From Candidatus Omnitrophota bacterium (lineage in GTDB: Bacteria; Omnitrophota; Gorgyraeia; Gygaellales; Profunditerraquicolaceae), in assembly GCA_011620275.1 (NCBI GenBank), contig WOZK01000010.1, positions 5,257-69,256 on the forward strand: a DNA stretch of 64,000 bases. The letters are read 5' to 3'. Shown in pieces: positions 997 through 43,600 of the stretch. The number at the start of each line of letters is the position of its first letter. The first letter of the stretch is position 1. Position numbers and translations under genes: made by a program. Under the pieces are notes generated by a model. It did no database searches. It was not told where the DNA came from and saw only the letters and a program-made list of their open reading frames with translations.

Positions 997-2658
997 ATGA
1001 AAATACCGTTCACAAGGATAGGACGCATAGCGCTTAGAATCCTTATCGGTATCCTGCTTTTTTTCTTCTTTGTCATCTACATAGTTATTCCGCTGGGCGC
1101 TCCGTGGTTTATCCGAAGCCAGGGTTCAAAGATTCTGTCTCATCCGGTCAAGGTGCGTTCGGTCTGGGTGAATCCTTTCTTGCTGCGGTTAAGCGTGGAC
1201 AAGTTCAAGATCCTGACCCCGGATAAAAAAGGCACTCTGACAGGTTTCGACAAATTTTGGGTTGATTTTAGTTTCCTGGGATTATGCAAGAAAGAGTACC
1301 GGATCGAGTCCATCGGTTTGTCCGGGTTGGTCGTCAATGTAGAGCTATTGCCGGGCAACAAGATAAACCTGATGAATCTGCTGCCGGCCTCCAGCTATGC
1401 CGCGGCGGTAGAGAAAAAGCCGGCTATAAACAAGCAGGAAGGACAGGCTCCGCGGGAAAAAGCACTTTTAGCGCCCGTATTACCGAATATCAGGATCGAC
1501 AGTATCAAGCTGACCGGCGGCACTGTGACTTTCACCGACCGGACCTTAACTCCGCAATTCAGCAGCACGTTTAACGATCTAACGCTTACCATATGCGGTA
1601 TTTCAAGTAAACCGGAGGATACCACAACCGCGGTATTCTCCGTCAAGATAGACGATAAAGGAGTGATCAACGCCGAAGCCGAATTCAAACCTTTTGTGCA
1701 GCCCATAGAATTGAATTCGACCTTTTCAATGGATGGGTATCATCTTGACGTATTGACGCCCTATGTGGGTAAATACGCCGGTCATGGCGTAAAAAGCGGC
1801 AGAATGGGCCTGAAAATGGATTACAAGATATCGGATAACAAGCTTAATGCCTGGCATAAGCTGCTCATTCAGAACTTCGATTTCGGCGAGAAGGTGGAGA
1901 GTAAAGACGCATTGAACCTGCCCTTTGGCTTGGCCATAGCTCTTCTTGAGGACCCGCAAGGCCGCATTTCGATCTCTCTCCCGGTTAAAGGCGATATGAG
2001 CGATCCTCAATTCGAATACTGGCATCTTGTCGGGCAAGTCGTCACGAATTTCTTTATGAAGCTGGTAACTTCGCCGTTCTTGTCGCTGTTGTCCATGACG
2101 GGTATTGAAAGCGGGGCCGAGGAGATGAGCTCGGTCTCTTTTGAGCCCGGCAAGGCGGAGTTGACCGACAAAACCAAAGAGAAACTCACGCTTCTGCTGC
2201 AGGTGATAAAAGAGCGGCCTAAACTTTTCCTGGAGATCAACGGAAGTTATGATCCCAAAACAGACTGGGCCGCGATCAGAGCCGAGGCTTACACAACCGA
2301 ATTTTCCGGCAGGCAGAAGGAAAGCAGCCGCAGCGATTGGAAAATCATTAAAGATATATATGTTCTGGATTTCGGGATCTTGGATTTCTGGAAACTGGCC
2401 AAAAAGTTCACTGTCGGCAAAAAGATCGATGAGCTTGCGATGCAGCAGGAGATGAAACGTCTGATCATAGAGCGGGGAAAAAATGACAATGCCGCGCTTG
2501 AAATATTGGCTGATCAGCGGGCCCGGGCAGTATATGATTTTATCATCTCCGGAGGATTCGACTCAAGCCGGGTTAAGGTCGGAGCTGTGCGCCAGACACA
2601 GGAAACTATGGGCCTGATACCACTTGAATTTACCATAACGGTGTTTGAGGCAAAGTGA
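997..2658 (+). CDS. DUF748/AsmA-like domain protein with an N-terminal membrane anchor
   Basis: 553 aa with a single N-terminal TM helix (LRILIGILLFFFFVIYIVIPL) and a long periplasmic beta-rich region whose repeat architecture resembles AsmA/DUF748 proteins. The family call is from memory and unverified. Confidence 0.4.
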   Translation: MKIPFTRIGRIALRILIGILLFFFFVIYIVIPLGAPWFIRSQGSKILSHPVKVRSVWVNPFLLRLSVDKFKILTPDKKGTLTGFDKFWVDFSFLGLCKKEYRIESIGLSGLVVNVELLPGNKINLMNLLPASSYAAAVEKKPAINKQEGQAPREKALLAPVLPNIRIDSIKLTGGTVTFTDRTLTPQFSSTFNDLTLTICGISSKPEDTTTAVFSVKIDDKGVINAEAEFKPFVQPIELNSTFSMDGYHLDVLTPYVGKYAGHGVKSGRMGLKMDYKISDNKLNAWHKLLIQNFDFGEKVESKDALNLPFGLAIALLEDPQGRISISLPVKGDMSDPQFEYWHLVGQVVTNFFMKLVTSPFLSLLSMTGIESGAEEMSSVSFEPGKAELTDKTKEKLTLLLQVIKERPKLFLEINGSYDPKTDWAAIRAEAYTTEFSGRQKESSRSDWKIIKDIYVLDFGILDFWKLAKKFTVGKKIDELAMQQEMKRLIIERGKNDNAALEILADQRARAVYDFIISGGFDSSRVKVGAVRQTQETMGLIPLEFTITVFEAK

Positions 2659-2769: not shown

Positions 2770-3235
2770 GTTATGATCATTGAATGACGGGATAAATGCC
2801 GTTGATCTGTTTAAAGCACCCCCTTGAAAGCGAAGGTTATCAGGTGCTGGCTTTATATTGAACGCCAAGGAGATCATTCCCGAGGTCCATCGTTTCCTGC
2901 CCGACATAATAATCCTGGATCTGCTGATGTCGGAATTAGCAGTCTGCTGAAAAAGTTCCACACGTAGTCATTCTGAGGCCGCAGGCCGAAGAATCTCATC
3001 GCGAGATGAGATTCTTCGCTGTGCTCAGGATGACAAATCAGGGTTTTTAGCAGACTGTTAGGCGGGTGGGGTGCCTGCGAAATGTTGGACAAGGATCCCG
3101 TCGGCCAAAGCACGCCGATCATCGTAGTGAACGGTTTGAATAAGGATATCGACAAGAAGAAGGCTTATGTAATGGGGATACAGGAGTCCTTCGCAAAACC
3201 CGTGGATATTTAGGCCCTGTTGCAAGCGATACGGA
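2770..3235 (+). pseudogene. Decayed response-regulator receiver-domain gene with multiple frameshifts and stops, interrupted by a palindromic element
   Basis: Receiver-domain peptide fragments in three frames: ...VMIIE.DGINAVDLFKAPLESEGYQVLAL..., ...AKEIIPEVHRFLPDIIILDLLMSE..., GISSLLKKFHT. After the inserted element comes ...DPVGQSTPIIVVNGLNKDIDKKKAYVMGIQESFAKPVDI(stop)ALLQAIRKY. There is no intact ORF. Confidence 0.6.
2967..3034. repeat. 68-bp palindromic element (GTCATTCTGAGG...CCTCAGGATGAC ends) inserted within the receiver-gene remnant. Its core is a perfect 30-bp palindrome at 2988..3017: GAAGAATCTCATC-GCGA-GATGAGATTCTTC.
   Basis: The perfect inverted repeat is read directly. Its translation gives the ...RDEILRCAQDDK... 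type peptide typical of spurious ORFs over palindromic elements. It splits the N-terminal and C-terminal halves of the receiver remnant. Confidence 0.6.
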
Positions 3236-3447
3236 AGTATACAAAGGAAAAAGAAGAAGATGGATAGCAGGCATAAACCATATTTCCCGCGGCCGGCCCA
3301 GCCCGGGAGTTTCATTAGTGTTGACTTCGCCGCGCGAAGATGTAAAATATCCCCTGGATTATCCGGAGACAGGCGGCTATCGGAAGGAAGAATTTGGATT
3401 GTTCGTACGGTATCCGGCGCCGGTAATTCTTGCGGACGGAGCGCGTT

Positions 3448-3816
3448 ATGAGAAAGATAAATTGCGATAAATGCAGTAAACCGAGCGCCTGCTGCAGCTT
3501 CGGGGCCTGGGTTGACCTGGAAGAAGCGAAAAGGATTGCCGCCCTGGGGCTGGAAGGCGAGTTTTACCATCTCGAAGTGGATAAGGATTTTCCTTCCGGG
3601 TACAGAGTGGGGACGAGTTATGGCAACAGCCCGTGTACCTTCCTTACCCCGAGAGGGTTGTGCTCCATTCATATGATAGATTACAAATTCAAGCCTTCCC
3701 ACTGCAAAGAATTCCCTTATGAGAACAAGAAACTCTCGCCGTTCGCCAGGCATCTTTGCCTTCAGGCCGGGCTTAAGAAGAAAAAGAAGAAAGTATCCCG
3801 CGTAGGCAAACATTGA
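3448..3816 (+). CDS. YkgJ-family (CxxCx(n)CC zinc/iron-chelating domain) protein
   Basis: CDKCSKPSACC motif near the N-terminus and a PCTFLTPRGLCSIH second motif, as in the YkgJ/PF03692 family. A GGAG lies 7 nt upstream of the ATG at 3448. The tracked ORF starts at 3430. Confidence 0.55.
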   Translation: MRKINCDKCSKPSACCSFGAWVDLEEAKRIAALGLEGEFYHLEVDKDFPSGYRVGTSYGNSPCTFLTPRGLCSIHMIDYKFKPSHCKEFPYENKKLSPFARHLCLQAGLKKKKKKVSRVGKH

Positions 3817-3822
3817 CCCGGC

Positions 3823-4533
3823 ATGAATCTTATCTCTTACGGTTTCCAGGACTCCAACCTTTTGCGGCATATGCCGCATTTCGAAGAGATATCTTACGCC
3901 GGCCACAATGAGGACAAGGTCCGCCTTTACAAAGCCCTTCACGAAGGACAGCCTTGCAGTATCCTTTCGCTGAATTTCATCCGCGGGGATGAAAAGATTC
4001 TCTGGGATGCGATAGAGGATTTCGTGAAGCGCGGCACGGCAAACGCCGCTTCCTCGGCCCGAGGCATATATATCTTCGACCTGCTTACCATAGATATACA
4101 TAAGGAAATAAAGACTTTTAATCAAGCCGAGCTCTCGGCTGTGATCGTTAACATCGCCCGGAAGATGTCTCCCGGAGAGATGAAGATGGTTAAATATTCC
4201 TCGCTTTACGCGTTGCTGCGAAAAACCGCCGACTACGACTGGGGAAAGATTACCTTCAAAAGCACGGTCAACGTGTTCAAGGATAAACCACAGTATTTGG
4301 ACCTGCTCATTAAGCAGCTTTTAAAAGATTATATATTCCCCCGAGAGCCGGTTATACTCCTGCTGAACGACATCAGCCAGAATCCGGTATTCGACCCCGG
4401 GAACGCGGCTCAACAGGAGAGACTGAAAAAGGTGATAACCGGTCTTGTCCCGAATTCGATGGAGTTTGTCCCGGAGGTCTATGTTCAGGATAAAAATGGG
4501 GCAAGAGAGCTTCTTTCAGGGTGTAATCTATGA
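3823..4533 (+). CDS. Hypothetical protein (236 aa), no recognised domain
   Basis: Clean ORF whose stop overlaps the start of the downstream S4-domain gene (ATGA overlap). Non-repetitive composition. The antisense 355-aa ORF at 3058..4125 is low-complexity and was rejected. Confidence 0.5.
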   Translation: MNLISYGFQDSNLLRHMPHFEEISYAGHNEDKVRLYKALHEGQPCSILSLNFIRGDEKILWDAIEDFVKRGTANAASSARGIYIFDLLTIDIHKEIKTFNQAELSAVIVNIARKMSPGEMKMVKYSSLYALLRKTADYDWGKITFKSTVNVFKDKPQYLDLLIKQLLKDYIFPREPVILLLNDISQNPVFDPGNAAQQERLKKVITGLVPNSMEFVPEVYVQDKNGARELLSGCNL

Positions 4534-8606: not shown

Positions 8607-10160
8607 ATGATTATGAAGCGGACTACTCTGTTTTCTTTTTTGCTTATACTGTCGGTCGGGTTAGCATTGCGGCTGTATGGTTTCTTTGAACGTTCCCTGG
8701 GGACGGACGAATCCATAAGCCTTTTTCTTGCCTCCGGGCACGGTATGGATGTCAAGGCTTTTACCGAAAAGGCATCGGCGGCAGGCAATGGTTTCCATTG
8801 TACGGCAAAGGACCTTAAACGTTTCTTCAGGGCGGACCGCGCGCTTTCTTTGGGAGAGTATACCGGCAGTCTGGCGCGGCTTGACCCGCATCCACCGTTG
8901 TATCTTTGGCTTATGTTTTTTTTGATGCGGCTTTTTTCGGACAGCCTGGCGGCGGTCAGGGCTTTTTCGCTGTTGATGGGGCTTCTGTCCGTGTATCTGG
9001 CGTATCTCCTGGCAAAGGAGCTTTTTGATGAGCGGGCCGGGATCTTCGCGGCCGCCTTCTTGAGCGTCTCCGCGCTGGCGGTGCGTTATTCCCAGGAAGC
9101 GCGCTCTTACAGTCTGGTCCTTGCGCTGGGGTTGCTCGCCTGGCTCTTTCTGGCGCGGTTCGAGAAACGCGGCAAACTACCGGACGCCTTGTTCTTTGCC
9201 GTCTTCAACTGCCTGGGTATTTACGCGCATTATTTTTTCGGGTTTCCGGCCTTCGCATTTTTTGTTTATTTTACCTTGCTTTACAGAAGGAATAGCCGCC
9301 TGCTGGACAGGTTCTACGCGGCGTTACTTTTTTCTTTGTTGTGGTTGCTTCCCTGGGGTCTTTTTATGATGGGCCGCGGCTACCGTTTCGACCTGGTGGA
9401 ATGGATCTTCGCTTATCCGGGCGTAATCGATAAGATAGCCGGTTTTTTTAGCGGGATGGGCAGGCTTCTTTTCATCTTCCCCTCTTCTTCCGTTCTCTCA
9501 GCCGCTGGTTCGCTGTTTTTTTTACTATTGATGTTTTACGCCGGGAAAAGGCTTTTGAAGGAATGTCCCCGGCAGTTATTTTTCTGCGTCTGCGTATTAT
9601 TCATACCCTTGCTGGCAATGCTGGCGTTAGATCTCCTGCAGGGCGGGTTGATGCTCAGGCAGGAGCGTTTCTGGATTTTTCCTTTGCTGGGTATGATTCC
9701 GCTTGCCGGATATTCTTTCAGCCGTCTTTTCCGGGAAAAAAGGCCCGCCGTTTATTGTCTGCTTGCCTTGATGCTTCTTTCCTCTTTATTGACGGCCGGC
9801 AGGCAAATAGGTCCGGCGCCCCGGACGCTGTCGGAATGGATTAACGGCGAGTCTAAAGGGAAGACGGCCGCGGTGATAGTATATAACTTCAGGACGGTAA
9901 CCATGCCGCAGTCGTTTTACCTGGACGACGATATCCTGTTGTTCCCGGTCTTGAACGCGGAGCAGTTCATGGCGGCGCTGGAGGCTGGCGTGGGTCCGGC
10001 GGACAATGTTTTCGTGGTCAGACATCTTCATCACGCAGATCCTGCTTTGATGGACGAGCCGTTCATGCGGTCGGAGGTTAAAGAACCCGGTCTGCGGCTT
10101 AAAAGCAGGTTCTTTAGGGATAATATCTACGCGGTTGAATACGTAAAGGGGGCTTTCTGA
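8607..10160 (+). CDS. Integral-membrane glycosyltransferase, family 39/83 (ArnT/PMT-like, uses polyprenyl-phosphate-sugar donors)
   Basis: 517 aa and multi-TM, with an N-terminal block (LRLYGFF...DESISLFLA) and overall architecture typical of ArnT/PMT 4-amino-arabinose/mannosyl transferases. Confidence 0.65.
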   Translation: MIMKRTTLFSFLLILSVGLALRLYGFFERSLGTDESISLFLASGHGMDVKAFTEKASAAGNGFHCTAKDLKRFFRADRALSLGEYTGSLARLDPHPPLYLWLMFFLMRLFSDSLAAVRAFSLLMGLLSVYLAYLLAKELFDERAGIFAAAFLSVSALAVRYSQEARSYSLVLALGLLAWLFLARFEKRGKLPDALFFAVFNCLGIYAHYFFGFPAFAFFVYFTLLYRRNSRLLDRFYAALLFSLLWLLPWGLFMMGRGYRFDLVEWIFAYPGVIDKIAGFFSGMGRLLFIFPSSSVLSAAGSLFFLLLMFYAGKRLLKECPRQLFFCVCVLFIPLLAMLALDLLQGGLMLRQERFWIFPLLGMIPLAGYSFSRLFREKRPAVYCLLALMLLSSLLTAGRQIGPAPRTLSEWINGESKGKTAAVIVYNFRTVTMPQSFYLDDDILLFPVLNAEQFMAALEAGVGPADNVFVVRHLHHADPALMDEPFMRSEVKEPGLRLKSRFFRDNIYAVEYVKGAF

Positions 10161-10165
10161 CGGAC

Positions 10166-10891
10166 ACGAAGCTGATTTCCATAATTATACCTGCTTATAA
10201 CGAAGAACTGCGGATACCGCCTTATCTTCGGCGGTTATCTTCATATTGCGCTTCCGCCGGCGCCGGCCTGCGCTTCGAGATAATCGTGGTGGATGACGGC
10301 AGCAGCGATAATACGGCCGGAGTAGCCGCCGCCTGCCCTGGGGCGCGCGTTATCCGCCTGGAGAAAAACACAGGCAAGGGATACGCTGTGGCCAGGGGGC
10401 TGCTTGAGGCCGCAGGAGAAGTCCGTCTATTCCTGGACGCGGACGGCTCGGTCGCTCCTGAAGAGATCGGCAGGAACCTGCATTATATCTCTGAGGGCGG
10501 TTACTATGTTTTCGCCGGCTCTCGGGTGCTGACAGGCCGGGGATGCCGCCTTAAGGCGAAATGGTACAGAAAAGCGATGGGATGGGTTTTTAATCTTATC
10601 CTGCATGCCGTGCTGCCCTTAAAAGTGCGGGACACGCAGTGCGGTTTCAAGATGTTTCGCGCCGCCGCGGTCGGTCCTTTATTCGGGAACGGCTGCCTTT
10701 GCGGATACGCTTTCGATATCGAGATACTCCTGAAGGCGCAATATGCCGGCTACAGGATCAAAGAAGGGCCTGTTTCCTGGGAGCATATCGGAGGCTCCAA
10801 AGTCGATCTTTTTGCTGATTCGCTGCGTTTGCTGGCGGATATATTCCGGCTTAGGAAGAAGTATGCCGGCCGCAGCCGGGCCGGCTCATAA
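10166..10891 (+). CDS. GT2 polyprenyl-phosphate sugar synthase (ArnC/GtrB/DPM1-like). The start codon is unresolved: ACG at 10166 is only a proposal from SD spacing (the frame contains no ATG, GTG or TTG upstream of 10286), and the exact 5' end is uncertain.
   Basis: ...KLISIIIPAYNEE...EIIVVDDGSSDNT... is the canonical N-terminus of a GT2 family-2 transferase. The frame opens at 10139 right after an in-frame TGA. An AAAGGGGG SD lies 12 nt upstream of ACG 10166. The tracked ORF begins only at GTG 10286, inside the catalytic domain. Confidence 0.55.
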   Translation, partial: TKLISIIIPAYNEELRIPPYLRRLSSYCASAGAGLRFEIIVVDDGSSDNTAGVAAACPGARVIRLEKNTGKGYAVARGLLEAAGEVRLFLDADGSVAPEEIGRNLHYISEGGYYVFAGSRVLTGRGCRLKAKWYRKAMGWVFNLILHAVLPLKVRDTQCGFKMFRAAAVGPLFGNGCLCGYAFDIEILLKAQYAGYRIKEGPVSWEHIGGSKVDLFADSLRLLADIFRLRKKYAGRSRAGS

Positions 10892-10898
10892 AAACAAT

Positions 10899-10926
10899 TT
10901 GTCAAAAGTCCAAATATGTATATAAT
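10899..10926 (+). promoter_or_regulatory. Sigma70-like promoter: TTGTCA, 16-nt spacer, TATAAT
   Basis: TTGTCA at 10899-10904, spacer AAAGTCCAAATATGTA, TATAAT at 10921-10926, placed upstream of the rho-like gene. Confidence 0.5.
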
Positions 10927-10989
10927 AAAGCAATAACATTAAAATTACCTGCGTAAACACATTTCCGCAGTACCGTTAATATCACAAAT

Positions 10990-11958
10990 TTGAGTTATCC
11001 ATCTAATAACAATTATCGTCGTAACGGTCAGCCTGCCCAGCCGCGCAGATTCATTTCGTCAGCCGCTCCGCGCCAGGCTGATGAAAATGAGCGGAAATTC
11101 TTTTCCGGGACAGCCGTCGATCCCTCCCCGCGCATACGCCTGGAGAACGGCAGCAGTGAATTTACCATGCGGGCGATGGATTTGGTGTGTCCCATAGGTA
11201 TGGGACAGCGCGGGTTGATAGTCGCCCCGCCAGGTTCCGGCAAGACCACCTTTTTGAAACATATCTGCCGCGCGGTGGCGCAGAGCTGCCCGGAGATGAA
11301 GCTTTACTGCTTGCTTATAGACGAACGCCCGGAGGAAGTCACGGATATCAGGCGCAACGTCACCGCGGAGGTGCACGCCTCTTCTTCCGACCAGACTTAC
11401 GACAACCATCTGCGTACGGCGGACGAGTTGATGAAGAAAGTGTTCGCTCAAGCGGCCGAAGGCGCCGACATTATGGTTGTGATAGATTCCCTGACCAGGC
11501 TGGCGCGCGTGCACAACGCCGGCAGCGTCTCCAGCGGCAGGACACTCTCCGGAGGGGTGGACGCCAGGGCGCTGGAGGTCCCGCGGCGCATATTCGGGGC
11601 CGCGCGCAAGATCGAGAACGGAGGGTCGCTTTCCATAATGGCGACCATCCTGGTCGATACCGGAAGCCGTATGGATCAGGTGATATTCGAAGAATTCAAG
11701 GGGACCGGTAACATGGAGATAGTTCTTTCCCGGGATATCGCCAACCACCGTATCTTCCCGGCGATAGACATCGCCGCCAGCAACACCCGTAAAAAAGAAC
11801 TTTTGCTTTCTCCCGAAGAACTGGACTCTTCGGATAAGCTGCGGCGTCTTCTGCTCGAGCGTGATCCGCTGGAAAGCGGCAGGGAACTTGTGGAGATGCT
11901 GGGCAAATACCCTTCCAACAGCGAACTGCTCGCCGCTTTAAAAATTAAAAATCAATAA
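10990..11958 (+). CDS. rho: Transcription termination factor Rho, ATPase/RecA-like domain only. It lacks the N-terminal helix bundle and the OB-fold primary RNA-binding domain.
   Basis: Aligns to E. coli Rho from about residue 130 to the C-terminus: SPRIRLENGSSEF..MDLVCPIGMGQRGLIVAPPGSGKTT...GGVDARALEVPRRIFGAARKIENGGSLSIMATILVDTGSRMDQVIFEEFKGTGNMEIVLSR...FPAIDIAASNTRKKELLL. The earliest in-frame start is TTG 10990, and the frame closes at TAA 10954. Only 100 bp separate it from the upstream gene. Confidence 0.8.
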   Translation: MSYPSNNNYRRNGQPAQPRRFISSAAPRQADENERKFFSGTAVDPSPRIRLENGSSEFTMRAMDLVCPIGMGQRGLIVAPPGSGKTTFLKHICRAVAQSCPEMKLYCLLIDERPEEVTDIRRNVTAEVHASSSDQTYDNHLRTADELMKKVFAQAAEGADIMVVIDSLTRLARVHNAGSVSSGRTLSGGVDARALEVPRRIFGAARKIENGGSLSIMATILVDTGSRMDQVIFEEFKGTGNMEIVLSRDIANHRIFPAIDIAASNTRKKELLLSPEELDSSDKLRRLLLERDPLESGRELVEMLGKYPSNSELLAALKIKNQ

Positions 11959-11980
11959 AGGGCGTTTCTTCCGCGATAAA

Positions 11981-12925
11981 ATGTCCGATAGCACTATTTT
12001 GCGATTGCTGGAATCCGCCGCGCGTAGACGGGAAACACTGGCCCGCGCTACCGACGCCTTCCGCCTTGTGGACGGAGCTGGTGACGGGATGGACGGCCTC
12101 GTGATCGAACGTTACGGCCGGCACTTCAGCGCGCAGGTTTTCGACAGGCGCTGGCTATATAAGGGTGATATCCTGACAGCTTTTCTTAAAGAACATTTCG
12201 GCGCGCTGTATTTTATCGTCAAGGATAGGTGCGGACAGGTTTCTCCGGAAGATTTCGGGAAACTGCTTTGGCTGAACGAGGCTCCGGCGGCCACAGTGGT
12301 TCGGGAGAACGGGCTCAATTTCTCGGTTGACCTTGATGACGCGCTCAACTGCGGCCTTTTCCTTGACATGCGCCGCAACAGGGATATAGTTTCCGGATAC
12401 GCCGCCGGCAGGCGGGTGCTGAATTGTTTCGCTTACACCTGTTCGTTCGGCGTTTACTGCCGCGCCAGGGGGGCCCTGGCCGCGGTTAACGTTGACGTAA
12501 GCAGGAAATCGCTTGAACGAGGTAGAGCGAATTATAGATTAAACGGGTTGGAGCCGTCTCGCAATGAGATGATCCGCGCGGACGCCGCCGAATACCTGAA
12601 GCGGGCTCCGGGCAGAAGGAATAGTTTTGGACTGATAATCCTCGATCCTCCTTCTTTCGCCCGCCATGAAGGCGGTGTCTTCAGCGTAAGGAAAGACATG
12701 CCCGGGCTTGTTGCTTCGGCGATAGAGATCCTTGAGCCGGGCGGCTGCTTGTTCGTATCCACCAATCTAAGCGGGATGACGAAGAGCGCTCTGACGGAGA
12801 TGTTCAAAGCCGGTTCCGCAGGGCGTAAGTTTGAACGCCTGGATTCTTCCGGCCAGGATGTGGATTTTACCGGCAGCGGAACCGTCCGGCGTGGCTGTCT
12901 GACGACATTGCTGGCGAGGTTCTAA
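11981..12925 (+). CDS. Class I SAM-dependent rRNA (cytosine) methyltransferase, RlmI/YccW-like
   Basis: LNCFAYTCSFG...LDPPSFARHEGG...LFVSTN motifs of the RlmI/RlmK PUA-MTase family. Confidence 0.7.
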   Translation: MSDSTILRLLESAARRRETLARATDAFRLVDGAGDGMDGLVIERYGRHFSAQVFDRRWLYKGDILTAFLKEHFGALYFIVKDRCGQVSPEDFGKLLWLNEAPAATVVRENGLNFSVDLDDALNCGLFLDMRRNRDIVSGYAAGRRVLNCFAYTCSFGVYCRARGALAAVNVDVSRKSLERGRANYRLNGLEPSRNEMIRADAAEYLKRAPGRRNSFGLIILDPPSFARHEGGVFSVRKDMPGLVASAIEILEPGGCLFVSTNLSGMTKSALTEMFKAGSAGRKFERLDSSGQDVDFTGSGTVRRGCLTTLLARF

Positions 12926-13011
12926 GACGCGAAAAGGGTTGTTCCGGTCTCCTTAACGTCGTATAATTGGGTGTTCCGGGCGTTTAGGAATATTTCGAGG
13001 GTAACAGGCAG

Positions 13012-14736
13012 ATGATCACGCAGATGAATATCCGCAATTTCGGTCTGATCGACGAGCTCTCTCTCGAGTTCGGCGCGGCCTTGAACATTCTCACCGGAGA
13101 GACCGGCGCCGGGAAATCCATAATTATAGACGCTTTGCGTTTCGCCTTGGGGGAGACGCTCGGTCAGTCGCAGATACGCGATACCGCGTTCCCCTGCGCG
13201 GTAGAGGCGGTTTTCGATATCGTGTCCCCGGAATTGAGGGGCAATCCTCTTGTGGCCGAATTTCTCCTCGGGGAAGAAGATCCCCGGTTGATTATATACC
13301 GGGAGCAATCCTCCGACGGCCGTAAAAAGGTGAAGATCAACGGACGCTCCGTTACCGTTTCCCAGCTTAAAGCGCTCGGGAACAACCTGGTGGATTTTCA
13401 CGGCGCGCACGACCACCAATTGATACTTTCCGCCGACGCGCATCTTTCTATCCTGGACCGGCTGATAGATTTCGCTTCACTCAAGGATGAATACCGGGAG
13501 ATATTTTCCAGATACAGGCAGACAGTTTCCGGGCTTGAAGAGATAGCGCTGGCCAGACAGTCCCGCGAGCGCGACCTCGATTTCCTCGGCCACCAGATAA
13601 AAGAGCTGGAGCAGGTCCCTCTTGATCCGACCGTTTACGAAGAGACCCGCAGGAAACAGCTCCAGCTTAACAACGCGGAGAAACTTTTCGAGGAGGTCAA
13701 CGCTTTACTGGCGCTTTTCGAGAATGACGACGGCGGAGTCGGCCGCACACTTTCCGGCGCTTTCGTCCCCATGCGCCGCCTTAACCGCATAGATGCCTCC
13801 ACGGAGGAACTGGCGCGGTCCCTTGAGCGCCTTCAGAACGAGGCGGAGGAGTTTTCCAGCCGGCTCGCTCAATATAAGGACGGTCTTTCTTTCGATCCCG
13901 ACGAGGCAGGCCGGATCAACAGGAATTGCGATATATACGAAGACATCCTCAGAAAATACGGCCCCGGATTCGATGACGCGCAGAGAGTTTATAGTTCCGC
14001 GAAGGAGAAATACGGCCTGCTGGCGGACCTGGAGCATAACGACGCCTCACTACGGGCGGAGTCCGACAGACTGGAAAAGGAACTCCGCGCGGTCGCCGCC
14101 AAGATCACGCGCCTGCGAAAAAAAACCGCTCAGTTCCTGAAAGATACGATCGAAAAAGAACTTTCGGAACTGGGAATAGCCGGCGCTCGTTTTGAATGCC
14201 GGCTGGAGGCGGCGCCCTTGAACGCCGAGGGAGCGGATAGTGCTGTTTTCTATATCAGTCCCAACACGGGTGAGGCGCTTAAACCTCTGGCTGAGATAGT
14301 CTCTTCCGGAGAGGCGGCCAGGCTGATGCTCGCGCTCAAAAAGGCCCTGACAAAAGTGGACACCGTGCCGGTCTTGATTTTCGACGAGATAGACGCGCAG
14401 ATCGGTGGGAGGCTGGGCACGGTTACCGGACGGAAATTAAAAGAGCTTTCTTCCGACCGCCAGGTCATATTAATCACGCACCTGCCGCAGATAGCCTCTT
14501 TCGCGAACAGGCATTTTAAGGTATCCAAGAAGGTCGCCGGCGGACGGACATTTACGGAGGTCTGCCTGCTGGACCGCGATGCCAGCGTGCGCGAGATGGC
14601 CAAGATGATGAGCGGGGAAAAGGAAAGCCGCATTTCCCTGGAGCACGCGCGGGACATGGCGGCCGAAGCGGGGAAAGAGCGCGGGGACGAGGGGAAAAGT
14701 CAGAAGCAGGAGATAGACAAGAAGAGCGGGAGATGA
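13012..14736 (+). CDS. recN: DNA repair protein RecN
   Basis: MITQMNIRNFGLIDELSLEFGAALNILTGETGAGKSIIIDAL (Walker A), a long coiled-coil middle region, and a C-terminal ...LIFDEIDAQIGG... signature. Confidence 0.93.
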   Translation: MITQMNIRNFGLIDELSLEFGAALNILTGETGAGKSIIIDALRFALGETLGQSQIRDTAFPCAVEAVFDIVSPELRGNPLVAEFLLGEEDPRLIIYREQSSDGRKKVKINGRSVTVSQLKALGNNLVDFHGAHDHQLILSADAHLSILDRLIDFASLKDEYREIFSRYRQTVSGLEEIALARQSRERDLDFLGHQIKELEQVPLDPTVYEETRRKQLQLNNAEKLFEEVNALLALFENDDGGVGRTLSGAFVPMRRLNRIDASTEELARSLERLQNEAEEFSSRLAQYKDGLSFDPDEAGRINRNCDIYEDILRKYGPGFDDAQRVYSSAKEKYGLLADLEHNDASLRAESDRLEKELRAVAAKITRLRKKTAQFLKDTIEKELSELGIAGARFECRLEAAPLNAEGADSAVFYISPNTGEALKPLAEIVSSGEAARLMLALKKALTKVDTVPVLIFDEIDAQIGGRLGTVTGRKLKELSSDRQVILITHLPQIASFANRHFKVSKKVAGGRTFTEVCLLDRDASVREMAKMMSGEKESRISLEHARDMAAEAGKERGDEGKSQKQEIDKKSGR

Positions 14737-14807
14737 AAGGAAAAACGCGAAAAGATAAATAGTGTCCTTAAGCATTTTTTCCGTTTTCTCGGGAGACCTG
14801 GAGAAAA

Positions 14808-15632
14808 ATGAGCGAAACCGTTTTTGATGAGCATACCGGTATCGTGTACCGCAGATGGGCGGCCGCGGAGCCGCGCGCGGCGCTTTTGCTGGTACACGGG
14901 CTGGGATCTTACGGCGGCAGATGGAGTTTTCTCGTTGAGTTCTTGCTGAAAGTGGGTATCTCTTCTTACGCCATAGACCTGCGTGGTTTCGGAGAAACGC
15001 CCGGACTTAAAGGCCACGTCGATTCTTTCGGCGTTTATTACGAAGACATAAAGAGTTTGCGCGGTATCATCGCCAAGGATTGCCCGGGGAAGAAGATATT
15101 CCTCTGCGGCGAAAGCATGGGCGGGCTGATTTCTTTTACGTCCGCCTGCCTGGCTCCCGGCCTGTTCGACGGGCTGATCTGTCTGGCTCCGTCTTTCAGG
15201 AACAGGTTGAAGGTGAAATACACGGATTACTTAAGGATGTTTTTCTTCCGTGTGTTCGCCCCGCGAAAACAGATGCTCCTGCCTTTTACCGCGCAGATGT
15301 GCACGCGCGACTCCGCTTATCAGAAGGTGATGGAGTCCGACAAGCGCGAGATCAAGGTGGCCACCCCGGTGCTTTTGACCAATATACTGCTTGCCGAGGT
15401 GCGCGCGGGCGCGCTCAGTGGAAAACTCTCCTGCCCGGTTCTCTTTCAGGTCCCGCTCGACCTGGACAATTTCGTCGACCCGGAAGGGACTAGAAATATA
15501 TTCCGCGCTTTGAGGATTCCGGACAAGAGGATCATTTTTTATCCGCTGATGCTGCATTCCCTTTCCGTAGACCTGGGCAGGGAAGAGGTGTTTAACGATA
15601 TTCTGGACTGGCTCAATGGGAGGATAAGATGA
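14808..15632 (+). CDS. Alpha/beta-hydrolase (lysophospholipase/monoacylglycerol-lipase-like)
   Basis: HGLGSYGGRW..., the GESMGG nucleophile elbow, and a C-terminal His motif. Its stop overlaps the glpK start. Confidence 0.7.
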   Translation: MSETVFDEHTGIVYRRWAAAEPRAALLLVHGLGSYGGRWSFLVEFLLKVGISSYAIDLRGFGETPGLKGHVDSFGVYYEDIKSLRGIIAKDCPGKKIFLCGESMGGLISFTSACLAPGLFDGLICLAPSFRNRLKVKYTDYLRMFFFRVFAPRKQMLLPFTAQMCTRDSAYQKVMESDKREIKVATPVLLTNILLAEVRAGALSGKLSCPVLFQVPLDLDNFVDPEGTRNIFRALRIPDKRIIFYPLMLHSLSVDLGREEVFNDILDWLNGRIR

Positions 15633-19927: not shown

Positions 19928-21133
19928 GTGAAGATGAAGGAAGAAAAAGAACGTTACATAGTGCATGTGGATATGGACGCCTTCTTCGCCGCGGTGGAAC
20001 AACGGGACAACCCGGAATACTGCGGCAGGCCGGTGGTAGTCGGCGCCGACCCTAAGGGAGGCGGAGGCCGCGGCGTGGTATCGACTTGTTCCTACGAGGC
20101 GCGCAGGTACGGCGTGCATTCCGCTATGCCGATCTCGCAGGCCTATCGAAAATGCCCGCACGCGGTGTTCCTTCCGGTGGATATGGAGAAATACAGCCTG
20201 GTTTCGGAGAAAGTGCTCTCCATTCTGAATTCTTTTTCCCCTCTGGTGCAGCAGGTAAGCATAGACGAAGCGTTCCTTGACATAAGTTCCAGCTATAAGC
20301 TGCACAGCACTCCTTATCTGGCCTGCTTGGCGATGAAAAAACGGATAAAGGAGGAGACCGGTCTTACCGCCTCAGTGGGGCTTGCGCCGAATAAAATGGC
20401 TGCCAAGATAGCTTCGGATTTTTGCAAGCCAGACGGGCTGCTGGAAGTCACGGCTTCCGGATTACGCGAGTTCCTCGATCCCCTGGACGTGGGGCTGTTG
20501 TGGGGAGTAGGAGAAAAGACCAGGTTATCATTCAACGCCCTGGGTATCCGTACTATCGGCGACCTCGGCCGCAAAACGCGGCAGGAATTAACCGGGCTTT
20601 TCGGAAGGAACGGGGTCTGGTTCTGGGAGGCCGGACGCGGGGTGGACGACAGCGAGGTTGTCCCCGAACGCGAGGCCAAGTCTGTCGGTAACGAAAGCAC
20701 TTTCGAAGAGGATACCGGGGATAGGAAAATTGCGGAAGGCGAACTTTTCCGGCTTTGCGAACTTGTCTCCGATAGAATGCGGGAAAAAGGTGTGAAAGGC
20801 AGGACTGTGACTTTGAAGATACGGCTGGAAGGGTTTCTCACTTATACCCGTTCCAAGACTCTGACCGAGCCGACCAATTTCACTGAAGACTTGATCAGGG
20901 CGGCAAGATATTTATTCGGAGGATTTTCCTGCCGGGGGAAGAAAATCAGGCTCGTGGGCGTCAAGGTCTCAAACCTTTCGGAGGCGGATGAACTTTTGCT
21001 TTTCGAGCCGGAAGGCGGGCAGAAACGGGAAAAGGCGCACAGGGCAGTCGACAGGATAAAGAAAAAGTTCGGGAGGGAGTGTATTTCTCAGGCGTCCGGA
21101 GCAGTCTTGGGGAAATTTAGACTTTCCACGTAA
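19928..21133 (+). CDS. dinB: DNA polymerase IV (Y-family, DinB)
   Basis: VHVDMDAFFAAVEQRDNPEY...VSTCSYEARRYGVHSAMP...SIDEAFLD, the canonical DinB catalytic motifs. Confidence 0.93.
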   Translation: MKMKEEKERYIVHVDMDAFFAAVEQRDNPEYCGRPVVVGADPKGGGGRGVVSTCSYEARRYGVHSAMPISQAYRKCPHAVFLPVDMEKYSLVSEKVLSILNSFSPLVQQVSIDEAFLDISSSYKLHSTPYLACLAMKKRIKEETGLTASVGLAPNKMAAKIASDFCKPDGLLEVTASGLREFLDPLDVGLLWGVGEKTRLSFNALGIRTIGDLGRKTRQELTGLFGRNGVWFWEAGRGVDDSEVVPEREAKSVGNESTFEEDTGDRKIAEGELFRLCELVSDRMREKGVKGRTVTLKIRLEGFLTYTRSKTLTEPTNFTEDLIRAARYLFGGFSCRGKKIRLVGVKVSNLSEADELLLFEPEGGQKREKAHRAVDRIKKKFGRECISQASGAVLGKFRLST

Positions 21134-26110: not shown

Positions 26111-26299
26111 ATAATCGGCGGCCCGCGTTGGAAGGAATAAATCCGGGACCTTAAAAAACGGGACCAGAGCCTTTGGGTGGCGAAGTCCCGTCATCGGCGC
26201 CGTAAGGCGCCATAAAACCTTCGCTTTTAGAAGCGGAGGTTTTTGTTTTTTAAAAAGGAAGGGCGTTTTCCCGTCCGCCGCAAGAAAGGGGGCAGCCGC

Positions 26300-27436
26300 A
26301 TGGTTCTCATCAGGAAGATCCCTGATACCGGGGAGAAATTGAGCATACTTTCACGCGATTCGCAGTATGATCTTGCCTGCGCCTGCGCCACCCGGGAGGA
26401 CGAGCACCGCCGGCGTTCCAAAGATGGCAAATGGATATATCCGGTGACGCTGCCCGGCGGGGGGACGACCTTTCTTTTCAAGACGCTTCTTTCCAATCAA
26501 TGCGTTAACGACTGCAAATACTGTCCGCTGCGCGCCGGTTCTCCGGCCGCGCGTTGTTCCCTGGCGCCGGAAGAGGCGGCCAGTGTGTTTTTTTCGTATT
26601 ATAAAGCGGGGAAGGTCAGCGGTCTCTTTTTGAGCAGCGCGGTCTGCGGCAGCCCGGACGCCAGCATGGAGAATATCAATCGGGTTGCTCTTTTATTGCG
26701 CAGGGAGCGTTTCAGGGGATACATACATCTGAAGATAATCCCCGGGGCTTCGGAGAACGCTATTAGGCAGAGTCTTTCTTTGGCCAGCGCGGTTTCTCTG
26801 AATATAGAGACGGCCGGGGAAGGGAATTTCAAGTATTTCGGCAAAGGCAAGGATTATGTTAAGGATATAATCAGACCGCTGGAATTCATCAGTCGTTTTA
26901 GGCGCAGCTGCTCCGGCGGGTGCAGGATTAAACAGACCACGCAATTCGTGGTGGGCGTCTCCCGGGAGACGGACGGAGAGATTATCGGTTGTTCTTCCCG
27001 GCTATACCACAGCCTGGGGATGTCGAGGGTCTATTTCAGCGCTTACCAGAGGGGAGAAGGTGATCCTTCTTTGCCTGGGGAGAACTCCTCATACAGCAGC
27101 GCGGAAATGCTGACGCGCGAGCACCGGCTTTACCAGGCTGACTGGCTGATGCGTAAATACGGGTTTCGCGCCGACGAGATACCGCTGGACCCCGGGGGTA
27201 ATCTTTCTCTGGATGCCGATCCTAAAGCAGTGTGGGCGAGCAGACATCCGGAATTCTTCCCGGTGGAGGTGAACAGCGCCTCTGCGTCGCGGTTGCTGCG
27301 TGTGCCCGGACTGGGGCTGACGGCGGTGGAAAGGATAATGCAGTTGAGGCGGGAAGGCGTAAGGCTGCGGTCTCTTGCGACCGCGGTTAAACGCGGAAAA
27401 ATACTGGAGCAAGCGGAGAAATATGTTGTTTTTTAA
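26300..27436 (+). CDS. Radical SAM protein with a C-terminal helix-hairpin-helix region (putative DNA modification/repair radical SAM family)
   Basis: CVNDCKYCPL is a Cx3Cx2C radical-SAM cluster motif. C-terminal ...ASASRLLRVPGLGLTAVERIMQLRREG is HhH. GGGGG SD sits before ATG 26300. The tracked ORF from 26243 is probably over-extended. Confidence 0.55.
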   Translation: MVLIRKIPDTGEKLSILSRDSQYDLACACATREDEHRRRSKDGKWIYPVTLPGGGTTFLFKTLLSNQCVNDCKYCPLRAGSPAARCSLAPEEAASVFFSYYKAGKVSGLFLSSAVCGSPDASMENINRVALLLRRERFRGYIHLKIIPGASENAIRQSLSLASAVSLNIETAGEGNFKYFGKGKDYVKDIIRPLEFISRFRRSCSGGCRIKQTTQFVVGVSRETDGEIIGCSSRLYHSLGMSRVYFSAYQRGEGDPSLPGENSSYSSAEMLTREHRLYQADWLMRKYGFRADEIPLDPGGNLSLDADPKAVWASRHPEFFPVEVNSASASRLLRVPGLGLTAVERIMQLRREGVRLRSLATAVKRGKILEQAEKYVVF

Positions 27437-28793: not shown

Positions 28794-29006
28794 ATGCATA
28801 CAGGAAAAGTGAAGAAATTGGTGGCGGATAGAGGATTTGGTTTTATAAGCGACACCGACGGAAGAGAAGTGTTTTTTCATCAGTCCAGCCTGATAGACGC
28901 CAGATTCGATTCTCTAAGCGAGGGCCAGGACGTGGAGTTTGAAGTGGAGAAGTCTCCAAAAGGGCCCAGGGCTGTAAACGTTAAGATAGCGGCTAAACAG
29001 GAATAA
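28794..29006 (+). CDS. Cold-shock protein (CspA family)
   Basis: MHTGKVKKLVADRGFGFISDTDGREVFFHQSSL...VEFEVE...GPRAVNV, with the RNP1 (GFGFI) and RNP2 (VFFH) motifs. Confidence 0.93.
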   Translation: MHTGKVKKLVADRGFGFISDTDGREVFFHQSSLIDARFDSLSEGQDVEFEVEKSPKGPRAVNVKIAAKQE

Positions 29007-40616: not shown

Positions 40617-43600
40617 TTGGAACAATGCGCAGACATCCCCGGATCCGGAAATATTAGGCTTATGAGCAATTCGTTTCGTGAATATGGTTTTTTTCGCCGC
40701 GCGGTAACGTTTTTTACTTTCTTGTCCTGCATTTTCGCTTTCTGTCTTCCTTTTTCATTCAGCGCTCCGTCTATCCCTCTAAATCCCGCCGTTTCAGAAC
40801 GACCGGTTTTTGTTTTTCGGTCACTGACTGTAGAAAACGGCAATAAGTTTTTGCGTCTGCCGGTTTTCTCCGCGTCATCCGGACCAACAAGCAGGGAATC
40901 CTGTCTTGAAGAGGAAGCCGGGCGTTTGACACAGTATTTTCTCACAGGTCTTAACGCGCCGTCCGGGGATCTTTGGGTAAATCTTTCGCCGCGTGATCCG
41001 GGCAGAATCGTCGGCCCGGCGTTGAAAGGCACGGAAGCCGGCAAGGTCATGCTCGATGCCGACATACAGCTCAAAAAGGACTTTGCCGCCCTTATATCTC
41101 CTTATACGAACAGGGGAAGTAATTTTTGGGTGCGAGTGAGGATGAAGAGCGGCGAGCTGTTCGGCGCCGGTGGAATGCAAATCCCTCTGGAGATAAGGCT
41201 CTGGATAGAGCCGTCGGAAGTCGTGATAAAAGAAAGCAATGAGAGCGCTTTCATAGAGAGGGCCGTGCTGAAAGTTTCTTTTGAACCGGTTTTCGGGCCC
41301 GGGGCGGACAGCCGCCTTATCCTTTTCGGCAACTACGCCTGCGGTCTGCTTTCGCCTTCAGTTTCGGAAGAGTTGACCGCGGCGGTCAATTCCGCCCCGC
41401 GTTATTGTCGGCTGAGGCAGGTTTTCAATTCCCTGGTGTTGGCACAATGGTTAAAACAGAGATCCGCCTCCCGAGAGGCGTATAACGAACTTGCCGCACG
41501 CGGCGTGCTCTGTGGTTTAGTCTCCGGCGCGCGCTGGTCGGCGCAGGACTACTTCAGGCAGTACAAAAAACTGGCGCAGAAGCACTCCGTAGATTTTTCT
41601 TCCATTAGTTTTTTGTCGACGGGCGAGATAAGTGTTATCTCCGGCTTCAGCGGGGGAGTTTCTTTCGCTCTACCGGCGTTTCCGCCTCCTGGAACGGTAG
41701 CCCTGCCGTTCCATGCCGGAGCGGTTACCGTCAAACCGGCCTCAGGGAATGAGACCGATAAATTGTGCAGGTCCGTGGTCGAGGCAAGCATAAAAACAGG
41801 GGCTTCCGGAGGCGTGCCGGAATTGGGGATAACCGTTCATCCTCTGCCGGACAGGACTCCCGCTGACACGGATAAGCTGTTCGTTTATGTTCATCCCGCC
41901 GCATCGGACGGCGGAGAAAGCGGAGCAGGAACCGATTCCCAGTCCGTCGATAATAACGTTGAGCGTTCAGGGATCAGCCGGCAGGAATATTTTGATAGAT
42001 TGCTGCGTTCCTGGGCCGGGATACTGGATTCAAACGAGAGGAAGGAGTTCCATGCGTCAATACGCAACGATATTCTCAATATTTCCAGTCAATGCGTAAC
42101 AATCATGCCTTTTATCCCTGAACGGGCAACCGGTAAGGCAGAGTCTCTGGCTTCTGATATACGGCTGATCGTTGACTTGCTCCGCGAGACCGTTCGCAGG
42201 ATCGATTATAACGTTGTCCCTGCGGATGAAGAAGAAAGAAAATCGGTTGCCGCGGAACGGGAGGAATTGCTGGCGGCCATCGAGTATTTCGCGGAATACG
42301 AATATGCCCTGAATTTCGTGGTGAATATCCCGAAGATCGAGCCGTATAGATTCAAACGGGGAGGGCGTTTCTGGCGTGCTTGTGAAACGGCGGTAAGGAG
42401 GGTCTTTCTCTTTGAGTACGGGCTAAGACGGTCGAGGCAGCTGCTGCTGGAGCAGACGGATAAAGTTATCAGCTTGGGGAACCGGCTGAACCGCGCCTAT
42501 ACCGGTAAAGAGAAATACGTTAGAGAAGAATGGAAGAAGTGGATCGCCGAGCAGGACATCCTGAACGGCGGAGTTAAACGCGCAGCGGGCGTGAAGAACA
42601 AAAGCAGCGTTCCGCTTGGTATCAACCGGACATGGAAGACCACCGGGACCACTACCCGTTTTGTGAGTTTGATATCGGTGTGTTTGTTCCTGTTTGTATC
42701 CATGCTTGATTTCGGGCACATTCTTGCCGGCATTTCGTTATTCCTGCTCAAACTGGGCCTGGTCGGCATGTCTTTTTTTATTTCCTGGTACAGTATCGCC
42801 TGGGTCGGATTCAACGACGTTTGGTATAAGCAGCGCATATCGGAACTTGAGTCATTGAGGAACAACGAAGCCGTTTGCGATTTCAGAAGAGAGCGGATTA
42901 AATCCGAGATCACGCAGACTTTAAACAGTTTCAAGAGAGAGAAACGTGCCCCCAGCGTTGATTACATACTTGTTTTTTGCAAGCCGGGGATGAAAAAAAA
43001 CGTCCGGCTGAACCCCGAACTGCTCAGAGATGATGTTCTTCTGGAAATAACGGAAGCCGATTCCGGAAGCGGCGGGGTTTACGCGCAGGCGTGCAGCGAT
43101 CTTCTGTCCGGCAGGTACGATTCGTCATTTGAGAGAACGGCGAGGCTCAAAGGTAAAAGTGTTTCCGATATGCGCGGCATCGTGATTGTCCTTGAGCGCT
43201 TCTTTTCAGTTTCCGAGACGGACGGATATCTGGATAAAGCGGCATCCGGCGCCGTATTGCCGGCAGGCTGGGGCCCTTTGAATAATCTGGAGATGGCTTT
43301 GTTGAACGGTTATAAATCCACTCAGGAAATGGGTGCTTTGGGCAGGAGCGGGATGGTTTTTGTATTTGCCGATAACTTTCTAATCAGCCCCGCGACAATA
43401 AAGGGCGATATAACGTTGATAGGTTCATGGGACAGCTATCGGCATATAAAAGATTGGGGATTGGGGCTGCTTGTCGCCGATATCGGCAGCGGCGACAAGC
43501 TGGTTAAATTGTATGAAAAGGCGGATACTCCTCGTTTGCATAAGAAGCTTCGCAGGTCTTTTCTTTACACGGCGTTGGATTGGGAGAATGAGGACAAGAC

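Follow-up and report, generated by a model that had tools for sequence, protein, structure and literature searches.

We analysed a stretch of 64,000 nucleotides (hereafter the window) from a Candidatus Omnitrophota bacterium (GenBank assembly GCA_011620275.1, contig WOZK01000010.1) that carries a short gene for the transcription termination factor Rho. The short rho open reading frame (ORF) occupies positions 10990-11958 on the forward strand and encodes 322 amino acids from a TTG start codon. The original prediction, made from the sequence alone, held that this Rho lacks its entire N-terminal RNA-binding domain and is either a naturally minimal Rho, possibly assisted in trans by a cold-shock protein, or a non-functional remnant. 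The features of the locus on which it rested are borne out. The reading frame is indeed closed by an in-frame TAA (10954-10956), 33 nucleotides 5′ of the TTG, and the upstream gene, which encodes a family-2 (GT2) glycosyltransferase, ends at 10891. From the TAA to the TTG start, the frame has no other ATG, GTG or TTG codon. Downstream of the TTG, the first start codon in frame is Met60; it falls in the conserved core, part of which its use would remove, and this leaves the TTG as the sole candidate, as had been proposed. Direct reading of the sequence 5′ of the TTG revealed no AGGAGG-like motif, likewise in agreement with the claim that a Shine-Dalgarno sequence is absent.

The promoter-like sequence noted originally is also present (Table 1) and is conserved in relatives. 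A scan of the surroundings of the gene returned four promoter-like sites where 0.8 were expected. Promoter, leader, TAA and TTG are all kept across four independent assemblies (L082, L084, L165), and the leader is nearly base-for-base identical in L082, L084 and L165, relatives with 86-96% protein identity. Because the same promoter-leader-start junction recurs in independent assemblies, a contig mis-join near 10950, named with the original prediction as a possible refutation, is excluded. Within the leader, a 5-bp inverted repeat (10949-10953 and 10966-10970) flanks the frame-closing TAA; the predicted fold of the leader is no better than that of shuffled sequence (z = -1.25).

Table 1. Features of the short rho locus in the window and, in the last six rows, positions of the two rho genes on contigs of three relatives.
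Feature	Position	Strand	Remarks
Putative sigma-70-type promoter, TTGTCA-16 nt-TATAAT	10899..10926	+	11 of 12 consensus positions
Predicted 5′ leader, about 55 nt	10934..10989	+	contains the frame-closing TAA; transcription start predicted from the promoter
N-terminal tail, amino acids 1-36 (MSYPSNNNYRRNGQPAQPRRFISSAAPRQADENERK)	10990..11097	+	basic, of low complexity, predicted to be disordered; in place of the Rho N-terminal domain
Rho connector and RecA-type ATPase core, amino acids 37-322, then stop	11098..11958	+	similarity to Rho models and structures begins near residue 127-136 and extends to the C-terminus
Walker A (P-loop) PPGSGKTT, amino acids 80-87	11227..11250	+	invariant; K85 and T86 correspond to E. 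coli K184 and T185
DERPEE, amino acids 111-116, catalytic Glu and Arg valve	11320..11337	+	invariant; corresponds to E. coli E211 and R212
Walker B VVIDS, amino acids 163-167	11476..11490	+	invariant; D166 corresponds to E. coli D265
Q-loop of the secondary (translocation) RNA site, SVSSGRTLSGGVDA, amino acids 179-192	11524..11565	+	
R-loop DTGSR, amino acids 223-227	11656..11670	+	invariant or nearly so; R227 corresponds to E. coli K326
Arginine finger R267	11788..11790	+	invariant; corresponds to E. coli R366
S-adenosylmethionine-dependent methyltransferase (PF10672, RlmI-like)	11981..12925	+	starts 22 nt after the short rho stop
RecN	13012-14736		follows the methyltransferase
L151 (Ga0247727_10007740, 20.3 kb), canonical rho	1359-2621		in the housekeeping block
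L151, short rho	9632-10621		right after guaA
JAJVIE010000003.1 (1,594,128 bp, GCA_022072175.1), short P0084	~443 kb		
JAJVIE010000003.1, canonical P0524	~1.09 Mb		
CAYSKO010000007.1 (121,410 bp, GCA_964431835.1), canonical P0485	~60 kb		
CAYSKO010000007.1, short P0063	~101.5 kb		

Architecture of the short Rho protein

The ATPase domain PF00006 is the sole significant Pfam domain of the window protein. Neither the OB-fold (oligonucleotide/oligosaccharide-binding fold) domain Rho_RNA_bind (PF07497) nor the Rho_N helix bundle (PF07498) gave a Pfam match in it, and the helix bundle is missing in all 86 loci examined. With an E. coli Rho query, tblastn aligned residues 129-417 to window positions 11086-11943, whereas for residues 1-130 no match was found anywhere in the window (best E 0.28), neither as a remnant next to the gene nor as a stand-alone copy. 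The NCBIfam Rho model PRK09376 is covered from position 127 to position 412 of 413 with 365 bits (cut-off 315), and among solved structures the best matches are chains of Rho, with alignments that start at residue ~129-136. These results uphold the original claim that similarity to Rho begins only near residue 130. The window protein scores well below the cut-off of TIGR00767, the equivalog model of canonical Rho (341.9 bits against 509.45), and the short forms carry the name Rho in the databases because they pass the looser PRK09376 model. They also fall short of NF041509, a model of a short Rho paralogue: the window protein aligns to positions 70-359 of 360 with 319 bits (cut-off 628), and for other short-form members the alignment starts at position 56-79 and yields 307-325 bits, about half the cut-off. 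Assignment to FliI and the type III secretion system ATPases or to the F1 beta subunit was rejected, with at most 81 bits against cut-offs of ~380-750.

The motor itself is complete. The window protein has the hallmarks of the RecA-type ATPase of canonical Rho (Walker A and B, catalytic Glu, Arg valve and Arg finger) as well as the Q-loop and R-loop that form the secondary RNA-binding site. Among 112 members of the family, Walker A and B, DERPEE, R269, the Q-loop (SSGRTLSGGVDA), DTGSR and the equivalents of R347, R353 and R366 are conserved at 97-100%. In the Q-loop, G183, R184, T185, S187, G188, G189 and D191 are invariant in the short family; R184 and S187 are the counterparts of E. coli K283 and T286, and Arg and Ser are also found there in canonical Rho of many other bacteria. 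The conserved core begins near amino acids 28-37 (PR..DExERxF.AGTAVDPSPRIRLE), a segment equivalent to the Rho connector.

Ahead of the connector lies a basic tail. The 69 distinct tails of the family have a median length of 38 amino acids and a median net charge of +5, and consist of 18% R, 12% P, 10% S, 7.5% N and 6.7% H. In the AlphaFold2 model of the window protein, the predicted local distance difference test (pLDDT) score is below 50 for amino acids 1-27. The family also differs from canonical Rho within the core, where 15 positions are fixed on a residue unlike that of all canonical Rho. Examples, in E. coli numbering, are TF to SS at 231-232, IV to YC at 205-206 and M219 to F or I; as motifs, STFDEP becomes SSSDQ and PIGKGQRG becomes PIGMGQRG. 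Positions 205-206 and 231-232 may lie in the NusG-KOW binding pocket, a possibility that is not used as evidence here.

A conserved family and its canonical counterpart

An exact look-up of the window protein returned no identical record, and its closest relatives have 95.6% (L082-L084) and 86% (L165/L085) amino acid identity. In total, more than 190 database proteins and loci have a Rho ATPase core behind a basic disordered tail, none of them with room for the N-terminal domain. The best 120 protein matches are 263-376 amino acids long, have only PF00006 and lie on contigs of up to 1.59 Mb; the named entries among them are labelled 'transcription termination factor Rho' of Candidatus Omnitrophota/Omnitrophica. 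A short-form-specific motif, used to scan metagenomes, added 80 further loci. In 86 loci, the frame is always closed at most a few dozen codons 5′ of the start, and the 71 complete ORFs encode 293-363 amino acids (median 322). The TTG start is kept in the subclade of the window, and most other members have ATG at the homologous position. A further scan, of a genome collection with an alignment of the whole protein, was dominated by IFEEFKGT, a pattern common to all Rho, and returned at least three short-form loci among the matches listed.

Compared with close relatives, the whole gene has a ratio of non-synonymous to synonymous substitution rates (dN/dS) of 0.09-0.12; taken separately, the core has 0.07-0.10 and the tail 0.17-0.21. 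The values near 0.1 indicate that the gene is not decaying; judged from its sequence, short rho is intact and strongly conserved. That it is a non-functional remnant, one half of the original prediction, is refuted by this purifying selection together with the invariant catalytic residues and the more than 190 intact homologues.

A few members of the family carry unexpected taxonomic labels. L004 (NZ_JBDVBQ010000029.1; 59% identity) is on a contig binned as a Paraglaciecola metagenome-assembled genome (MAG), L002 (CAYNGE010000208.1; 67% identity) is on a contig binned as a Planctomycetales MAG, and the short-form protein P0087 is labelled Verrucomicrobiae. These may be errors of binning or labelling, or the short form may occur outside Omnitrophota.

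Over 286 core columns, short forms are 74% identical to one another, 50.5% identical to the canonical Rho of Omnitrophota and 49.7% identical to the canonical Rho of other phyla, whereas Omnitrophota canonical Rho is 66% identical to that of other phyla, and the latter are 64% identical to each other. The short form is thus no nearer to the canonical Rho of Omnitrophota than to that of other phyla, and it is further from every canonical Rho than canonical Rhos are from one another. In a neighbour-joining tree, the short forms make up a clade with 97% bootstrap support, which lies outside the canonical cluster that includes Omnitrophota canonical Rho. This clade also holds P0241, P0244 (Sericytochromatia), L004 and P0291, and it joins other divergent short Rhos loosely, with support of at most 48%; in such a distance tree with long branches the deep nodes are not settled. 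An old paralogue would fit these relationships better than a recent truncation. The combination of tail and core is also seen beyond Omnitrophota in several cluster representatives with Arg-rich N-termini in which the OB-fold was not detected: P0244 (a Sericytochromatia MAG), P0247 (on contigs of 4.4-4.9 Mb), P0258, P0291 and P0300, with Hydrogenedentes MAGs included. This architecture may have arisen separately in other candidate phyla.

Omnitrophota also have a canonical rho. Full-length rho genes were found unexpectedly in the Omnitrophota-labelled MAGs L035, L050 and L077, among the matches listed in the genome-collection scan. Two protein searches then yielded at least 240 canonical Rho proteins of 397-477 amino acids with Rho_N, Rho_RNA_bind and the ATPase domain; those listed with a named source are mostly from Omnitrophota/Omnitrophica MAGs. 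The Omnitrophota canonical gene always lies in the block polA-glgA-coaE-rho-rpmE-prfA-prmC-murA-rpsP-trmD-rplS-rnhB(-guaA) (L162-L164, L171-L174, L151), no part of which is found within the 64-kb window. On the contigs of three independent relatives (20 kb, 121 kb and 1.59 Mb), both rho genes are present (Table 1). The base composition of the first of these, L151, is uniform along the contig, and the P0485/P0063 pair of another recurs on the independently assembled JGI contig Ga0163149_10000082. The short proteins of the three contigs have 65-73% identity to the window protein and, by this measure, sample the breadth of the short family. By extension from these relatives, the genome to which the window belongs probably also has a canonical rho. 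The original prediction had stated that a full-length rho elsewhere would make the short gene a decaying paralogue. Its co-existence with a full-length gene is thus confirmed in relatives; the decay is contradicted by the invariant motor residues and the low dN/dS.

Other attempts to link the two genes were negative. Pairing short and canonical proteins per MAG by neighbouring GenBank accession numbers gave no pairs in 20 clusters, three NCBI MAGs have no short gene up to 10 kb away from canonical rho, no canonical rho adjoins the closest relatives of the L151 short gene, and the table of Seymour 2023 records presence only, with no per-genome rho counts, which a limonene-enrichment study does not give either. 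P0104 (short, GCA_001874025.1) and P0471 (canonical, 'CG1_02_46_14') could be a further pair from one genome.

Set against known Rho types, the short form shares with canonical Rho of the E. coli type (TIGR00767/PRK09376; PF07498, PF07497 and PF00006) the connector and the whole RecA-type motor, with 47-53% core identity. It differs in having a basic tail of ~35 amino acids instead of helix bundle and OB-fold, in being a second gene beside canonical rho and in its 15 differently fixed positions. Rho proteins without the N-terminal helix bundle that keep the RNA-binding domain are described as Type 4 or 'Group B' in a recent survey (PMC11347177; D'Heygere 2013 as cited there). Like these and like NF041509, named 'Rho, short form (paralog_Rho2)', the Omnitrophota protein is a shorter, divergent second Rho with conserved catalytic residues beside a full-length one, a co-existence that is part of the definition of NF041509 and that was found here on the three contigs. 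However, Group B/Type 4 and NF041509 keep the OB-fold, position 3 of NF041509 being equivalent to canonical residue 56, and the Omnitrophota short form does not. In the same survey, proteins with only one detected Rho domain are called 'Rho-like', and ATPase-only proteins are excluded from 'functional Rho' and dealt with in a supplement; 2730 genomes were surveyed, and the text does not name Omnitrophota (PMC11347177). By definition the short form fits this ATPase-only bin, which was set aside (Moreira 2024), whereas our data describe a large family with purifying selection and a characteristic basic tail. A 2025 review of Rho makes no mention of forms without the N-terminal domain. Type 2 Rho of Bacteroides, Mycobacterium and Clostridium also has a basic or low-complexity disordered N-terminal segment, with possible unspecific RNA binding, but there the disordered Arg/Asn/Gln-rich region is added to an intact N-terminal domain, whereas the tail of the short form replaces this domain.

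A possible second Rho motor and its alternatives

To our knowledge, in every accepted model Rho finds its targets via the primary RNA-binding site in the N-terminal domain. Here, a large phylum-wide family keeps the whole Rho motor but has discarded this site. The reading that we favour, with a probability of about 0.55, is that the short form is a functional Rho paralogue made of connector, RecA-type motor and basic tail, which would act as a ring-shaped RNA translocase without a rut (Rho utilization) recognition site. Omnitrophota would keep the canonical three-domain rho in the housekeeping block and the short rho at a second, variable locus. Since all ATPase, arginine-finger, Q-loop and R-loop residues are kept, the short protein may be expected to assemble into a hexameric ring and to work as an ATP-driven 5′-to-3′ RNA translocase or helicase. 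As it is without the primary site, YC-rich rut sites would not be recognised in the classical way, and loading would be unspecific, via the Arg-rich tail, or would occur with the help of a partner. In addition to canonical Rho, the cell could thereby have another activity in RNA remodelling or termination, one with relaxed sequence demands.

Several points weigh against this proposal. Hexamer formation without the N-terminal domain is assumed, and in E. coli Rho this domain contributes to ring contacts. The AlphaFold2 monomer of the window protein, built from an alignment of 30 sequences, is of low confidence (pLDDT 62.9) and silent on oligomers. The 15 family-specific substitutions may reflect an altered partner or substrate. 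None of the contigs of the 86-97% relatives of the window could be matched to a canonical rho. In addition, the genes around short rho change from one part of the family to another, with no family-wide operon partner and with the commonest neighbour in 11-12 of 76 loci, so that genomic context is a soft guide to function. Lastly, the controls for the enrichment of neighbouring genes described below are mostly from other phyla, and several short rho loci share ancestry.

The chief rival explanation sees the short form as a regulatory subunit of mixed hexamers with canonical Rho, with fewer primary sites per ring tuning the strength or specificity of termination and with little activity of its own. 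In its favour, genomes are found with both genes, the two forms share a conserved arginine finger and conserved nucleotide-site residues that act across the interface, and hetero-hexamers have already been proposed for species with two rho genes (PMC11347177). However, the cores are only ~50% identical, with the 15 positions fixed differently, and there is no consistent linkage or co-regulation, the short gene being found in many different operons. The fully conserved Q and R loops, too, fit an active translocase. We consider mixed rings possible but rather unlikely.

The genes found near short rho bear on another explanation, in which Rho is split and a free cold-shock-domain protein supplies RNA capture in trans to the short Rho ring. 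The cold-shock domain has the fold type and the GFGF RNP1 motif of the Rho OB-fold. Within 7 kb of short rho and on the same strand, a gene for such a protein occurs in 10 loci (8 non-redundant, in ~6 arrangements, two directly upstream), in several of them after a gene for an ABC-F ATPase. ABC-F genes are near short rho in 12 loci, usually 7-150 nucleotides downstream on the same strand; ABC-F proteins with two ABC_tran domains, ABC_tran_Xtn and ABC_tran_CTD are encoded directly downstream in L087, L109, L115, L147, L155, L158, L161 and others. A DEAD-box helicase gene lies nearby on the same strand in three loci and adjoins short rho in L091 and L151. The surroundings of canonical rho, 769 kb from other phyla and 132 kb from Omnitrophota, contain none of these three kinds of gene, and such neighbours hint at a function in RNA or translation stress. 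The cold-shock homologue at 28794, from which the original prediction drew its partner in trans, is a real cold-shock-domain protein of 70 amino acids (28794-29006, forward strand; PF00313, E 4e-22) with an RGFGF RNP1 motif. The proposal of such a partner gains from relatives, where the gene is far commoner within 7 kb than in the 901 kb of control loci, and loses from the window itself, where it is 17 kb away. Moreover, most short rho loci have no cold-shock gene nearby, cold-shock proteins are abundant general RNA chaperones, and the controls reflect mostly other phyla and not the background of such genes in Omnitrophota. On balance a split Rho appears doubtful. We hold its wider version, a ring loaded by free cold-shock proteins together with the tail in an RNA or translation stress module with ABC-F and DEAD-box proteins, to be equally improbable. 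If true, it would represent a termination or RNA-remodelling system with its specificity set by an exchangeable adaptor.

A motor that has been turned to another substrate in place of nascent RNA, such as DNA or R-loops in repair, and that no longer takes part in termination is, in our view, very unlikely. The RNA-contacting Q and R loops are unchanged, and the repair and replication genes near short rho in the window, L001 and L175, which with the family-specific fixed substitutions could be taken in its favour, vary by locus and are mostly limited to single subclades. We think it hardly probable, too, that the short form is the sole, naturally minimal Rho of its genome and responsible for all factor-dependent termination, as one version of the original prediction had it. 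Canonical rho is absent from the window and none has been tied to the closest relatives, but the window is a small part of a genome, and the position of the short clade, no closer to Omnitrophota canonical Rho than to that of any other phylum, speaks against recent truncation of an orthologue. This reading is also disfavoured by the three relatives, drawn from different parts of the family, in which a single contig holds both genes. A remnant or an assembly artefact, to which the missing domain and the TTG start without Shine-Dalgarno sequence might point, has a negligible probability in view of the low dN/dS, the invariant catalytic residues, the many intact homologues and the recurrent junction.

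A functional short Rho paralogue would serve as a natural experiment on the capabilities of a Rho ring that lacks rut recognition, and on its loading. Annotation can already be corrected: databases name these proteins plainly 'transcription termination factor Rho', surveys that need an RNA-binding domain discard them, and neither the label nor the exclusion reflects a conserved second motor beside canonical Rho. Since canonical Rho is present as well, general termination may still be held to need the N-terminal domain. The short form is less radical than originally proposed: it adds a new, uncharacterised variant to the known range of Rho paralogues and does not point to a cell whose transcription is terminated by a Rho without RNA-binding domain.

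Other neighbouring genes and observations in the window

The methyltransferase gene starts so soon after the short rho stop that the two are probably co-transcribed, and no terminator-like site was found between them. Only the subclade of the window (L082-L086, L165) keeps short rho, methyltransferase and RecN in this order; the methyltransferase is local context and not a family-wide partner. Other short rho genes follow genes for a sulfate permease, a peptidyl-prolyl isomerase, KdpD/KdpE and others, and their start often overlaps the upstream stop. Nine of 76 loci, all of one subclade, have directly upstream a gene for an uncharacterised protein of ~290-345 amino acids without Pfam match, which overlaps the short rho start (for example L161 1454-2491 and L145 3582-4589) and is preceded by KdpD/KdpE-like two-component genes.

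Genes for repair and replication are present near short rho at loci not related to one another, in the window (RecN, and DinB at 19928-21133), in L001 (LexA-DinB, 11718-13611) and in L175 (DnaE, HU and RecO, 11435-14875), which may be due to chance. The small ORFs directly downstream of short rho in L001 and L175 have no homology to each other.

The window has a G+C content of 53.3%, and neither tRNA genes nor Rfam families at the gathering threshold were found in the whole 64 kb. Two ORFs of 355 and 397 amino acids (3058-4125, reverse strand, and 26243-27436, forward strand) have no Pfam match at E <= 1e-5. The same holds for an ORF of 2219 amino acids at 40617-47276 (forward strand); two preprints report such very long proteins as characteristic of Omnitrophota (bioRxiv 10.64898/2026.06.07.730766; 10.1101/2023.11.21.568195).

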